UHGV virus genome: UHGV-1445333
Source: a virus
Length of the DNA: 24,885 bases
Direction: 5' to 3' (one strand)
The notes under the pieces were generated by a model. The model was given only the letters and a program-made list of their open reading frames with translations, had not been told where the DNA came from and searched no databases. A program made the position numbers and the translations under genes. Of the stretch, positions 11,738-16,628 are shown one piece after another; the first letter of the stretch is position 1; every line of letters begins with the position of its first letter.

Positions 11738-12336
11738 GCGGCCTCACTTCTGCTATTTCGCAGGTCTTTGAGTTTCTGTTGGTACTCTGCCTTGATCGCC
11801 TTGCACTCTTCGATAGTCCAGCGATGGCGGTTATGGTTTGATTCGATTTCGTCTACTGCTTCCTGCCCGATGCGGCTAATCAGTTCGACGCGATACGGAA
11901 CGAGATTTCCGCTTTTGTGCTGGTTGCACACCACGCATTGCTTGTGAATATTGCGTTCATCAAATCGGAGTTGAGGTGCCGCAGCAGTTGTCCGGTAATG
12001 TCCGGCATCCCACTGAGCAGACGTGAGCGTTCCGCACGAGATACATGGTAAGTCGCGGTCTCTTTCTCTGATGAAGGCGTTTACGGCTTGTTGGGCTTGT
12101 TTAATCCAGTAACTGCGGGGCTTTAAGGCGAGTTTTCGAATCTTAAGTTTATCTTTCTGTTTCTGCTCCTCTCGTCGCCGTTTCTTCTCTGCTGCTTTTT
12201 CCGCTTTTTCGCGTTCTTTGCTTCGTCGTTCGAGTGCTATCTTTGTTCCACAAATCTCATTACACCAATATTGATTTTGATATTTTGGTATAAACCATTC
12301 ATTGCAACATTTACATTTCCTTCGATAGATTCGCAT
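11734..12336 (-). CDS. ninG: NinG (Rap) recombination endonuclease, about 200 aa, with a divergent N-terminus
   Basis: From [18 protein letters not shown]... to the C-terminus it matches lambda NinG from memory; start set at ATG 12336 (strong SD AAGGAG, 5-nt spacer); the first 28 residues ([29 protein letters not shown]) differ from lambda but keep the Cys pattern. Confidence 0.8.
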
Positions 12337-12850
12337 AAGTGCTCCTTTCGTTGCCGGAAAAATCACCGTAATACTTATCTCGGGCTTCTTCAGCAACTAG
12401 TACCGCTAACTCCAGATCATCAAAGCATCCGAAGTGTTTACTCTTGCCATGGAAACCTAGCCTAACATTCCATTTTTTCTGTCGTTTGTGCCAAGTAACT
12501 CCTCTGCAACCTGATTTGCTATTCTTTCGGATCCTTATATTTCTTGAATTTTCTATTGGCAGGCATTCTCTTAAATTTTCTGGCCTATTGTCGGTCCTAA
12601 TTCCATTAACGTGGTCAATTTGACCAGCAGGCCAACGATTATGAGTTATGTAAAAAACTAAGACGTGAGTTTTATATCTACGCCCATCTATCATGATCAT
12701 TGAATAACCGTTGGAATCAAAAGTTCCAGCAACACTATTTAATGCTATCCTTCCCTGAGTGGGAACTTTCCATCTAAATACCCCGGTAGATTTATCGAAA
12801 CTTAGTAACTCAAATATCCTTTTAACAGTTAAATCTTCTCTTTTACGGTT
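12255..12850 (-). mobile_element. Putative endonuclease insertion cassette within the 5' end of ninG (approximate boundaries)
   Basis: About 0.6 kb of visibly AT-rich sequence carrying the HNH ORF and a replacement ninG 5' end, flanked by sequence I recognise as lambda-like (ninF/ninG start upstream, ninG from GTKIALERR downstream). Confidence 0.5.
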
Positions 12851-12877
12851 ACATCGTCTTCGCGCTGGTTTAGCCAT
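12311..12877 (-). CDS. HNH homing endonuclease with AP2-like DNA-binding domain, 188 aa, fused to the first 9 codons of ninG
   Basis: HNH motif ([26 protein letters not shown]) plus AP2-like segment ([15 protein letters not shown]...[17 protein letters not shown]); starts MAKPARRRC, the lambda NinG N-terminus, at the ATG overlapping the ninF stop; AT-rich relative to neighbours. Confidence 0.8.
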
Positions 12878-13046: not shown

Positions 13047-13404
13047 TATTGGCGTCCTGCATCATGAGAAAGACAATCATGGCAGCGCGGAGTGGGTTTT
13101 CATCTTGAGTCATATGATATGGGGTACTATCACTGCCAACTTTTCTATGCGCTGCCTTCCATAATCCATTTTCTGGCGCTGGAATAATGCCAATTCTGTT
13201 CTCTACGATAATCGGCTCTGCGTCTGACGGGCTTTTACAGTAATCAACCGTTTTTATTGCATAACCAGTTTCGTCATCCCACTCAACACCAACGATTGAT
13301 GTTCCCAACTTTGCGATTTCGCAATCTTCGGGAGCAAATCCACAGCAAATTGCCACTCGCTTGTTAATTTCAAAATCACTTAACTGTGAATAATCCATTG
13401 TCAT
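13039..13404 (-). CDS. nin-region protein of unknown function (DUF2591-like), about 121 aa
   Basis: Track ORF 13039-13440 (GTG start) trimmed to ATG at 13404, which overlaps the ninE stop (ATGA); product [18 protein letters not shown]... resembles small nin-region proteins of lambdoid phages. A second in-frame ATG at 13398 has the better SD spacing. Confidence 0.55.
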
Positions 13405-13577
13405 TTCCTCGCACGATGTCTTAGCCACCGGATATCCCACAGGTGAGCCGTGTAATTGAAGGTTTTTACGTCAGATTCTTTTGGGATTGGCTTGCGTTTA
13501 TTTCTGGAGCGTTTCGTTGGAAGGTATTTGCAGTTTTCGCAGATGATGTCGGTGAAACTTCGTCGCTGTCGTCTCAT
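13401..13577 (-). CDS. ninE: NinE, 58 aa
   Basis: Translated by hand: [58 protein letters not shown], matching lambda NinE from memory; ATGA overlap with the ninB stop. Confidence 0.7.
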
Positions 13578-13984
13578 TCGTACCTCCTGTCGGTAAATCT
13601 GACACCCTGACCAATAGCCCAGGATGTTGTGTACTCGATCAGACTTGCCATACGCTTCACGCTCATCTGCGCGCTGCTTTCGCGAATGTTGACGTATTCG
13701 CCTTCAAGGCCGGGCAAAACATCAGCTTCCTGTTTTGTTGCCACTGCATGACCGCTGATCAACAAAACCTTCCATTGTTCCGGTTTTAACCATTTGCCGC
13801 ACCATTGAACCTGACGTGCGATATCCGCCAGCATCGCGTGAAATTTTGCGTTCTGGTCAAGGTTGCGCTTGTAGTCAATAATGCGGATGGTGACTGGCTT
13901 GTCTTTATCGAGTGGTGTTGCGAGGATGGCGTTGATTGCGGCTTGCTGTTGTTGCTTAGTTCGGAGGAATATTGTTTGCTTCAC
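13574..13984 (-). CDS. ninB: NinB (Orf-family recombination mediator), 136 aa
   Basis: Conserved block [25 protein letters not shown] aligns with lambda NinB LDQNRKLWACLGDVSRQVEWHGRWL; first gene of the nin cluster. Confidence 0.8.
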
Positions 13985-13995
13985 TGAACACTCCT

Positions 13996-14187
13996 TTATT
14001 TTTTATGCCTGTAACCCCATTCTTCCAGCAACCTTGCGGCGTACCACCCAAGAAACAAAGGAAAGAACATTACAATGAGATATTCCCCGCCACGGTCAAT
14101 GTTCGAAATTGACCAGATTACGATGTAACCAGTGCAGGACAGGAATATTACAAACCCCAAAAAGCTACTTCGTCGACTCATGCTCAC
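13996..14187 (-). CDS. Hypothetical small membrane protein, 63 aa
   Basis: ORF-track product with two hydrophobic stretches; same strand, abuts the next ORF. Confidence 0.4.
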   Translation of the reverse strand: MSMSRRSSFLGFVIFLSCTGYIVIWSISNIDRGGEYLIVMFFPLFLGWYAARLLEEWGYRHKK

Positions 14188-14447
14188 TCCTTCACTTTGA
14201 TTCCAGCGGCGCGGATAGCCTCTACATCGCTTTCGTATTGCGATTCTGCACCTGAGTCATAGCCAATGTGATAATCACCGGGAAGTGGGCCTTTCTTTGG
14301 CTTTTGCAGCTCAATTTCAATAGCTGCTCGCGATGCCTGCCACGCTTGCCAATACATCTCAACCATATTGGCGTATATTTTATTTTTAGGATCACATCCG
14401 GTGTAATTTTCAAACCATTCTTCAAACTTCTTTCTTGATTCGTCCAT
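14184..14447 (-). CDS. Hypothetical protein, 87 aa
   Basis: ORF-track product; acidic, Trp-rich; 4-nt overlap with the downstream ORF suggests coupling. Confidence 0.45.
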   Translation of the reverse strand: MDESRKKFEEWFENYTGCDPKNKIYANMVEMYWQAWQASRAAIEIELQKPKKGPLPGDYHIGYDSGAESQYESDVEAIRAAGIKVKE

Positions 14448-14464
14448 CGGTACTTACCCTCAGT

Positions 14465-14671
14465 TCAACTCACAAAACGCCACGCCATTTTTGCTACGAC
14501 AACAGGCATAACACCGATAATCACCCACAGGAAAATGCTACCGAGAAGCACACCAACCAGGTCTTTACCTTCGCCTAACAACCGGACAAAACTGCTGGCA
14601 ACCACAATGAACGTCGCCACCATCCACATAGCACCGAGAATCCTCAATGCAGAAAAAATCAACTCAACCAC
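14465..14671 (-). CDS. Hypothetical small membrane protein, 68 aa (GTG start)
   Basis: GTG at 14671 preceded by GGGGGAGGG (6-nt spacer); product is almost entirely hydrophobic (two predicted TM helices). Confidence 0.45.
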   Translation of the reverse strand: MVELIFSALRILGAMWMVATFIVVASSFVRLLGEGKDLVGVLLGSIFLWVIIGVMPVVVAKMAWRFVS

Positions 14672-14684
14672 GATCTACCCTCCC

Positions 14685-14718
14685 CCAAATAAAAAGGCCT
14701 GCGATTACCAGCAGGCCT
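14685..14718 (-). terminator. Strong intrinsic terminator after the helicase gene (tR2-like position)
   Basis: Minus strand AGGCCUGC-UGGUAAUC-GCAGGCCU (perfect 8-bp stem) followed by UUUUUAUUUGG; begins about 30 nt after the helicase stop, where lambda has tR2 ahead of the nin genes. Confidence 0.65.
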
Positions 14719-14747
14719 GTTACAAGCTCAGTGATGTAGATGGTCAT

Positions 14748-16628
14748 TTAATACTCCGTCACGTTTTCCTGTCGCCACGCCTCGTCATATTCCGATTTCG
14801 GCATATTGGCGATGTAGCTATATGGCGATCCTGATTCAAGTTGCAGGAACTGGTGCGATTGCTCGTCAAGGAACAACGGGACACCACCTTCCCAACCTTC
14901 GCCGTTACGTTGTTTTTCAAGCATCAAAACAGATGCCGGAGATGCCAGTAGCTGTTCGTCCTTCTCTGACATCTTTTCACCACTCTGAACTCTCTGTAAC
15001 GCTCTCTCGCGAGCCTTGTTACGCCAGATGATGAAAAGGTTGTCTGTCAGGTCTGTTATCGCTCCAGAGCCTTTTACGTCCATTTTCCCGGTTGGTTTTT
15101 CTTCGCTGTCACCTTTTCGCGAGTGAGTAACGAGAATGACGTGGGAGTTTGTTTTGTTTTTGAAATCGCAAATCGAGTCAACAAACGCCTTCTGCCCGTT
15201 ATAGTCATCGTCGCCTATGCCACATTTCATCAGGCTGTCGATGATGAATAACTGGATGCCGTATCGGCGGCGAGCGTAGTCGAATATTTCGATCAGCCTG
15301 TCGGCTTTCGCCGTTCCGGTCAGGCCAAACACCCAAAGTCTTTCGTCATAAAATTTAAATGCAGAGTCAATTTCCAGCACTGGCGGCATCTTGCAGCACG
15401 TCGCCTGACGGGTAAGGCGCTTAAGGAGAATACCAGGCTTCAGCTCAAGTGACGCGATGCACGTCTTCACACCCTGACGCATTGCCTCAAGTGCCATATG
15501 CCCGACAACCTCCGTTTTTCCGTGACCGTTCACACCATTGACCAGCGTCAACTCTGCCTCACGGAACTGGAATTTATCTGCCAGAGATTCCCACGGTGGA
15601 TTAAACAGATACTGCTGCTTGCCGTAGAAAGCGTTGATAGTGTCCTGGTAAAACTCTCGCGCACTGTAGAGTTCTTCAGGATCGAAGTAGGATGCCGTGC
15701 CGATGTACTGCCAGATTTCATCCTCGGTAACACCGTTCATCAGGCATTCGTTGATGTCTTTGTACGGCAGAGTAACAAGACGGCAACGATGTTCACCGAG
15801 TCGGCTTGCGATTTCCCTTGCGGCTTCACGACCAACATCATCAACGTCCATCGAGATGAATATTTCCTCAAACCTGTCGAGGTTGTGGTACTCAAACTCA
15901 ATCCACTGTTGCTTAGCGCCTTTCCCGCCACCAAACGGCACGGATAACGCCGAGATGCCGTATTGCGCATAGCTCATACAATCAATTTCGCCTTCGCAAA
16001 GTACAACCGCCCTCACGCCAGCGTCCAGAGCCTGCCATCCGAACAGACAAGGTTCGCAATCACCTTCTGCCATAATGACTTTCTTCCCGTCCGGGCGCTC
16101 AGTGCTGATTCGCTTGACCTGCAACAACTCACCATCGCGTTTGTACGGAAGCACCAGTGCATCAAGTTCTCGTTCTCCATTCCACACCTTGCCGCTGACA
16201 ACCTCGTAGCGCTTTACGACTTCTGGCGATATGCCACGCGATTGCAGGTACTCAAGATGGGATTCTGTTCTGGTAACGTAGCGGGCGATTTTCTTGCGGT
16301 CAGGTCTGGAGAATTTCTTCTCACGTCTGGCATCGAAATGGTGATCGTCATCCTTGATTCCGAGAAAGGCTTTCGCTTCCTGCATAGCCTGATGCAGGTT
16401 AATTCCACGACATGCCATCCACAAATCAAGCATGTCACCGCCGTCTCCCTCAGCGAAATCAGCCCATTTTTTCTTGCCGCTAAGGTTGACCTTAAGGCTG
16501 TTTCCCTTGTCACCGTTGACGTTACCGGCAACCCACTCATGCCCCTCTTTCTTGCCATTTGGCAACAGGTGCGGAGCCACCCTGTCAACCTGCGCCCAAA
16601 GCAGGTCGCTAAGTTCACTTGGCCTCAT
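14748..16628 (-). CDS. Bifunctional DNA primase (TOPRIM) / DnaB-family replicative helicase, 626 aa
   Basis: TOPRIM-like acidic motif (VVLCEGEIDCMSYAQYG) in the middle; Walker A (NGVNGHGKTE) and Walker B-like (LFIIDSL) in the C-terminal half; follows the O-like initiator in place of lambda P. Confidence 0.85.
   Translation of the reverse strand: MRPSELSDLLWAQVDRVAPHLLPNGKKEGHEWVAGNVNGDKGNSLKVNLSGKKKWADFAEGDGGDMLDLWMACRGINLHQAMQEAKAFLGIKDDDHHFDARREKKFSRPDRKKIARYVTRTESHLEYLQSRGISPEVVKRYEVVSGKVWNGERELDALVLPYKRDGELLQVKRISTERPDGKKVIMAEGDCEPCLFGWQALDAGVRAVVLCEGEIDCMSYAQYGISALSVPFGGGKGAKQQWIEFEYHNLDRFEEIFISMDVDDVGREAAREIASRLGEHRCRLVTLPYKDINECLMNGVTEDEIWQYIGTASYFDPEELYSAREFYQDTINAFYGKQQYLFNPPWESLADKFQFREAELTLVNGVNGHGKTEVVGHMALEAMRQGVKTCIASLELKPGILLKRLTRQATCCKMPPVLEIDSAFKFYDERLWVFGLTGTAKADRLIEIFDYARRRYGIQLFIIDSLMKCGIGDDDYNGQKAFVDSICDFKNKTNSHVILVTHSRKGDSEEKPTGKMDVKGSGAITDLTDNLFIIWRNKARERALQRVQSGEKMSEKDEQLLASPASVLMLEKQRNGEGWEGGVPLFLDEQSHQFLQLESGSPYSYIANMPKSEYDEAWRQENVTEY

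Follow-up and report, generated by a model that had tools for sequence, protein, structure and literature searches.

A variable slot between tR2 and ninB of an HK620-like phage holds three small accessory genes, two of them predicted to encode inner-membrane hairpins

Gene content between the primase gene and ninB

The window, by which we mean the whole stretch of 24,885 nucleotides of UHGV virus genome UHGV-1445333 that was analyzed, belongs to an HK620-like, P22-like (Lederbergvirus) lambdoid phage or prophage, and up to 56% of it aligned to vB_EcoP-611R6 and HK620 at approximately 97 to 98% identity. The genes of interest are located on the minus strand within the early (pR-type) rightward operon, where the order of transcription is toprim primase/helicase, NinA, orf68, orf87, orf61, NinB, and then NinE, NinX, and NinF (Table 1), followed 3′ of NinF by an HNH/AP2 endonuclease, NinG, the NinI phosphatase, Q, and the late lysis cassette. 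The endonuclease gene, inserted between NinF and NinG (positions 12311 to 12877, minus strand), encodes a homing-endonuclease-like protein of 188 aa with HNH_3 and AP2 domains, and the 3′ end of this gene and the beginning of the listed NinG ORF overlap. The interval between tR2 and ninB, here called the slot, is tightly packed: intergenic gaps are 2 to 17 nt or are replaced by overlaps, and ninB starts 11 nt past the third ORF.

The slot contains the three minus-strand ORFs that an earlier sequence-only reading of this DNA had described (68, 87, and 63 aa, the last at positions 13996 to 14187), and two of the three encode predicted small membrane proteins in the early operon between tR2 and ninB, as that reading had it. 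Conservation in related phages was also checked, with homologues of orf68 found in 107 phage records (tblastn), orf61 in 195 E. coli genomes, and members of the orf87 family in 286 phage records. By sequence criteria, all three are real protein-coding genes; purifying selection or wide conservation was found for each. A search for RNA elements returned no Rfam family at an E value of ≤1 between positions 13400 and 15200. On the opposite strand, a 99-aa ORF (plus strand, 14535 to 14834) runs antisense to orf68, NinA, and the 3′ end of the primase gene. This ORF is probably spurious, because dN/dS in shifted frames, which were those of the coding strand only, was approximately 1.

Table 1. Features in and around the slot between tR2 and ninB
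Feature	Position	Strand	Evidence or remark
Toprim primase/helicase replication gene	14748..16628	-	Pfam Toprim_2 and DnaB_C; phrog_239, E 2.6e-171; left neighbour of slot
NinA, 27 aa, hydrophobic	14664..14747	-	phrog_5907, E 9e-19; HK620 ninA annotated at same place
tR2-type intrinsic terminator	14685..14718	-	Terminator scan, RNA fold, HK620 and mEp235 annotation
orf68, predicted two-helix inner-membrane hairpin, GTG start	14465..14671	-	phrog_1165, AF2, dN/dS
orf87, soluble, mildly acidic, mosaic	14184..14447	-	phiTE_015 / Sf6 gp48 / PF26207 / phrog_343 family
orf61, two hydrophobic segments, ATG start	13996..14181	-	SD AAGGAG, 72%-identical homologue, dN/dS
ninB, Orf-family recombination mediator	13574..13984	-	Pfam NinB, E 1.8e-54; right boundary of slot
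S-type holin	9453..9776	-	Late lysis cassette
Endolysin		-	Between S-type holin and Rz; late lysis cassette
Rz	8559..8996	-	Late lysis cassette

The terminator tR2 lies inside the NinA ORF

A strong terminator had been placed directly upstream of the three genes. A tR2-type hairpin is indeed present there and on the same strand (8-bp stem with 6 G-C pairs, 8-nt loop, stem at 14718..14695 by terminator scan and RNA fold), but it does not stand in an intergenic gap, since tR2 is contained in the NinA ORF. The terminator reads AGGCCTGC-loop-GCAGGCCT, then TTTTTATTT, and the homologous site is annotated as tR2 in HK620 and as a rho-independent terminator in mEp235. The 27-aa hydrophobic ORF that encloses it (MTIYITELVTGLLVIAGLFIWGRVDRG) matched the NinA family (phrog_5907, E 9.3e-19) and agrees with HK620 ninA/tR2 in position, with a near-identical sequence. 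Its ATG directly follows the primase TAA (TAAATG) and its TGA overlaps the orf68 GTG start by 8 nt, so that the junctions of primase, NinA, and orf68 form a chain of translational coupling that spans the terminator. In reporter work on lambda tR2, a ribosome translating near the hairpin suppressed termination, and the NinA initiation site upstream of tR2 was remarked upon in the same study (PMC4824070). One may speculate that the chain from primase through NinA to orf68 could suppress termination at tR2 in a similar way. The NinA ORF was retained in 61 of the 67 related loci compared below, and its C-terminal tail varied with the cassette that followed, which would therefore put the left recombination junction at the T-run of the terminator.

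The suggestion that lambda carries ren at the equivalent place did not hold. In mEpX1, a Ren-like gene is found past the helicase loader and upstream of the terminator region, and a homologue of orf68 is situated downstream of the terminator; because the two coexist on opposite sides of the terminator, Ren is not the positional equivalent of the slot genes. Like the slot genes, lambda ren stands between replication genes and ninB and is non-essential, but it lies upstream of tR2. Ren is a soluble protein and not a membrane protein. None of orf68, orf87, and orf61 resembled Ren, and no match to a Ren family was obtained in Pfam or PHROGs.

orf68 encodes a conserved, predicted two-helix membrane protein

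The GTG start of orf68 is preceded by a strong Shine-Dalgarno (SD) sequence (GGGGGAGGG) immediately 3′ of the terminator T-run. The GRAVY score of the protein (1.57) was the highest among the 105 ORFs of 50 to 100 aa in the window (mean, 0.04; standard deviation, 0.56). An AF2 model built from a 21-sequence alignment predicted a helical hairpin with helices at residues 2 to 33 and 38 to 67 (pLDDT 88.5). Membrane topology was predicted from hydropathy, the positive-inside rule, and AF2. Across the orf68 family, lysine and arginine residues are concentrated at the C terminus (mean, 1.8) and at position 10, the turn (G-x-G-K-D-P) is net neutral, and the C-terminal tail comprises 8 residues. Given this distribution of K+R and the positive-inside rule, we infer an N-in/C-in topology with a short periplasmic turn.

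The whole of orf68 matched phrog_1165 (E 3.1e-35, residues 1 to 68 on profile positions 1 to 68 of 68); most family members are 68 aa long, and W16, W49, G53, K61, and W64 are invariant. In comparisons with HK620, Ec15103, and a Salmonella P22-like phage (41 to 54% amino acid identity), dN/dS was 0.28 to 0.37 at a dS of 1.1 to 1.8. In the shifted frames of the HK620 pair, dN/dS was 0.81 and 1.05, and shifted-frame coding was rejected on these values (0.8 to 1.05). The homologues formed 235 clusters at 90% identity, and a HMMER scan of 1.84 billion representatives gave 15 matches, all of one narrow family. Named sources of the family are only Escherichia, Shigella, and Salmonella (lambdoid phages), no Pfam domain was matched, and all source names read "hypothetical." Within these hosts, homologues occur in podophages (P22-like), siphophages (HK022 and mEp235 type), and Stx phages, preceded variously by lambda-type P, DnaB-type, toprim-type, or Ren-containing modules. 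HK620 itself contains an unannotated 68-aa homologue of 54% identity directly after ninA (NC_002730.1, 12378 to 12584; locus L003, 1577 to 1783), and the homologue in the HK022 record likewise lies under no feature.

orf61 is a small gene that looks systematically missed

The third ORF had been read as a 63-aa protein starting at GTG 14187. It is better read as 61 aa: the start is most likely ATG 14181, since an SD sequence (AAGGAG) is placed 5 nt upstream of this ATG, and GTG 14187 lies within both that SD and the stop codon of orf87. Database gene callers likewise give members of this family as 61 aa. The description of orf68 and orf61 as an almost entirely hydrophobic pair was apt for orf68 but not for orf61, which has a GRAVY score of 0.41 and charged ends. 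Its N terminus (MSRR) is followed by hydrophobic windows at approximately residues 7 to 26 and 34 to 50 that are joined by a D-R-G-G-E turn, and the protein ends in a charged tail (RLLEEWGYRHKK). An N-in/C-in topology with a short periplasmic turn, as for orf68, is predicted from this arrangement.

The only diverged relative of orf61 (P0124) has 72% identity, the same length and frame, and an AGGAGG SD; its gene stands directly after a DnaB-type helicase gene (locus L007), unlike the context in the window. Between the two, dS was approximately 1.0 and dN/dS was 0.19. The DNA of orf61 was present at ≥95% identity in 195 of 5,426 complete E. coli genomes (e.g., locus L005, 3610 to 3795), and there was no annotated feature under it in any of the 30 RefSeq E. 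coli records listed. The exact protein was called on at least 997 contigs, and the family formed four clusters at 90% identity. No match was found in PHROGs, Pfam, NCBIfam, or PADLOC. Taken together, orf61 looks like a systematically missed small gene. Two export signals were considered and rejected. A lipoprotein was rejected by inspection, as the lipobox [LVI][ASTVI][GAS]C is not present: the window reads F-L-S-C and variants read FLVC and FLIC, with the wrong residue at position −3 in all three and also at position −1 in FLVC and FLIC. A Tat signal was rejected because the spacing in RRSSFL differs from that of the Tat motif (S/T-R-R-x-F-L-K) and because RRSSFL is not conserved in P0124, where the sequence reads DRRGSVMG.

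orf87 is a short member of a mosaic family

The 87-aa protein, previously called acidic, is only mildly so (pI 5.0; 16 acidic versus 12 basic residues). It is soluble, its gene is preceded by a GAGGG SD, and its dN/dS was 0.16, a value that comes from only 5 substitutions. The whole protein matched phrog_343 (E 2.2e-29), and the family comprises 621 proteins at an E value of ≤1e-3. Proteins 100% and 99% identical to orf87 carry precomputed PF26207, PGAP names a 98%-identical gene "phiTE_015 family protein," and relatives in phage records are called "Sf6 gene 48 protein" or "similar to P22 EaD"; no phiTE_015 or PF26207 model was returned from our local copies of Pfam and NCBIfam. Compared with the phiTE_015/Sf6 gp48 family, orf87 is an 87-aa short variant, lacking the Cys-rich extension that the 138-aa forms have at the N terminus. 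The family is mosaic: the N-terminal MDESRKQFEEW, the linker WQASRAAIEIE, and the IRAAG(I/V)KVKE end are conserved, and the cassettes in the middle vary.

The structural model of orf87 (pLDDT 81) consists of an alpha-alpha-beta part, a disordered loop, and an alpha-beta part, in which no fold was recognizable, and a search of PDB sequences with the alignment profile returned nothing relevant. Some homologues of orf87 in the databases are named "VOC family protein." Judged by the Pfam gathering cutoff and by the beta-alpha-beta-beta-beta module fold, a VOC/glyoxalase identity was rejected for orf87 (Glyoxalase_4, 22.3 bits versus a cutoff of 27 bits; the predicted fold is wrong), and the name is probably an error derived from a sub-threshold Glyoxalase_4 match. 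In a prophage of E. coli S88 (locus L006, 1892 to 2213), the gene of this family is listed as a pseudogene with a frameshift, which agrees with its being dispensable.

The interval between tR2 and ninB is a hypervariable accessory slot

We compared 80 IMG/VR loci in which NinB is 96 to 99% identical to that of the window; 66 of these contained the tR2 motif, which together with the window gave 67 loci. Among the loci with the motif, the distance from tR2 to ninB ranged from 233 to 1,349 nt, and clustering of the ORFs pointed to a limited repertoire of cassettes in a fairly fixed order. With the window included, orf68 was found in 42 of the 67 loci and came first whenever present, the orf87 family was found in 44, and orf61 was found in 19. 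Optional cassettes were a 108-aa N-terminally anchored protein (phrog_5903) with a 66-aa partner (phrog_7185), or DUF7301. Following orf61 in 10 loci (e.g., L018, 2462 to 2644) was an unrelated 60-aa two-TM ORF (MVNAFICSLFLVAIFHGFLL...), to which neither PHROGs nor Pfam gave a match. At least one small membrane protein was encoded in 54 of the 67 loci, and these came from four unrelated families (orf68, orf61, the 60-aa two-TM protein, and the 108-aa anchored protein), two of which are invisible to standard annotation.

In related phages, orf68, orf87, and orf61 each occur without the other two. They are therefore three independent cassettes and not one three-gene system, and for the same reason orf87 is probably not tied in function to orf68 and orf61. 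As judged from these comparisons, the interval is a hypervariable tR2-to-ninB accessory slot that holds three independent, tightly packed cassettes. Genes of the nin region have been reported to be non-essential and to be drawn from a pool of 30 to 50 genes (PMC5630979, PMC8022706). That this junction in enterobacterial lambdoid phages is a dedicated hotspot for unrelated micro-membrane proteins, which might jointly make up an unrecognized class of lytic-phase inner-membrane effectors acting in exclusion or counter-defence, is an idea to which we attach rather little weight.

The slot genes are probably delayed-early genes

A consensus scan, which is weak evidence, detected no sigma-70-like promoter on the minus strand between positions 13400 and 15200, and the terminator scan detected none 3′ of the slot genes. 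The antitermination model of lambda and P22 is established. Since the slot genes have neither a promoter nor a terminator of their own by these scans and are positioned behind tR2, they would therefore be transcribed only by polymerase reading through tR2. We infer that they are delayed-early genes, expressed alongside the nin genes and Q when the phage grows lytically or is induced. Read-through of tR2 would result from antitermination and would possibly be aided by ribosomes translating NinA over the hairpin. Our search of the literature found no expression or localization data for these proteins.

Possible action of orf68 and orf61 at the inner membrane

Both orf68 and orf61 carry positive charge at their termini, and we propose that the two proteins insert in the inner membrane with both termini cytoplasmic and a short G/D-rich turn in the periplasm, where they would bind or perturb a component of the host inner membrane during phage replication. 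Their likeliest single role would be protection at the level of the membrane, of the infected cell or of the phage programme, either by blocking entry of DNA of a secondary phage, as T4 Imm does, or by neutralizing a membrane-acting defence of the host or of a prophage. It is very probable that the slot holds real delayed-early accessory genes, two of which encode membrane hairpins. That orf68 and orf61 act on a target in the host inner membrane is somewhat probable, a role specifically in exclusion or defence is possible but doubtful, and the explanation as a whole appears to us evenly balanced between right and wrong. No homology, profile, or fold link to a protein of known function was found, exclusion, holin, and defence families included, and PADLOC and NCBIfam scans gave no match; because of this, the functional part of the explanation was drawn from size, topology, and position. 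The presence of orf68 in phages with differing virion and ejection systems argues against a blocker of DNA entry tuned to one injection apparatus.

The same structural and positional evidence would serve if the hairpins were modulators of host physiology that act on an inner-membrane transporter, an FtsH/HflKC-like protease, or a component of division or respiration, the aim being a cell optimized for replication and not action against other phages. The spread of orf68 over differing virion types fits a host target better than a phage target. However, no similarity to a known modulator was found, and the narrow host range and the presence/absence polymorphism in near-identical phages are more typical of arms-race genes, so that we consider such modulators unlikely.

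Counter-defence as a separate reading is quite unlikely. The membrane proteins would then neutralize membrane-acting Abi or exclusion systems (a RexB-like channel, SieB, or Zorya type) and would be analogues, not homologues, of Ren. Delayed-early lytic expression behind tR2, as inferred above, is consistent with this, as are the rapid turnover of cassettes in the slot and the Ren-like gene in the same neighbourhood of a relative (mEpX1). Against it, Ren is soluble and unrelated, and no anti-defence family was matched, where PADLOC contributes defence models only.

Class II holins and pinholins are proteins of approximately 60 to 95 aa with two TM domains, and one of them, S21-68, shares with orf68 a length of approximately 68 aa, two TM helices, and a predicted N-in/C-in topology. 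In size and in having two TM segments, orf68 (by its hairpin) and orf61 (by its hydrophobic windows) resemble them, and the C-terminal tail of orf61 is charged; either or both proteins might thus be holin- or antiholin-like and tune membrane permeabilization. Such a part in lysis timing is nevertheless highly unlikely, as the window has a separate canonical late lysis cassette (8559 to 9776) and the slot genes belong to the early operon, with no endolysin anywhere near, and thus not to the lysis-cassette position beside endolysin that holins occupy. There was no holin profile, with no Pfam holin family at an E value of ≤0.1, and the C-terminal tail of orf68 has just 8 residues.

Small inner-membrane proteins of prophages can exclude other phages: P22 SieA (162 to 164 aa, three predicted TM domains, prophage expressed) blocks DNA injection, and the prophage-encoded HK97 gp15 is listed as blocking injection by an unknown mechanism (PMC10883804). 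SieA is a membrane-acting inner-membrane protein of P22-like phages, to which the window belongs, but it is encoded elsewhere and has no similarity to the slot proteins. Indeed, no match to T4 Imm, P22 SieA, HK97 gp15, or similar exclusion proteins was found in Pfam, annotated PHROGs, NCBIfam, or PADLOC, nor did any PADLOC defence model match. Morons have their own promoter and their own terminator; the coding strand here has no promoter-like site, no terminator was found 3′ of the genes, and the operon is tightly packed. There is accordingly a very slim chance that the slot genes are superinfection-exclusion morons expressed in the lysogen. The operon position argues against a classical lysogen-expressed exclusion factor and is compatible with exclusion in lytic growth.

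That one or more of the ORFs, chiefly orf61, is no functional gene but a chance reading frame or a spacer before ninB has a negligible probability, for despite the missing annotation in the E. coli records listed, the missing PHROG, and the small number of clusters, orf61 has a homologue with conserved length, frame, and SD in another context, a dN/dS of 0.19 at a dS of approximately 1.0, and identical copies on at least 997 contigs.

Relation to known phages

The nin region of HK620 and P22 corresponds to that of the window in operon, position, and chain of overlapping starts and stops, and NinA and tR2 of HK620 are near-identical to those of the window; HK620 differs in that it is without orf87 and orf61 and that its orf68 homologue is unannotated. 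As such, the finding is an ordinary one: the nin region is known to be mosaic, and these are conserved hypothetical accessory genes within it. Should the hairpins turn out to act in exclusion or counter-defence, the slot would offer a compact and easily screened source of new inner-membrane micro-proteins, and these could influence how prophages of E. coli, Shigella, and Salmonella compete, Stx phages included. What is modestly new is that small membrane proteins unrelated to one another occupy the slot repeatedly, and that annotations are missing for orf61 and, in HK620 and HK022, for orf68.
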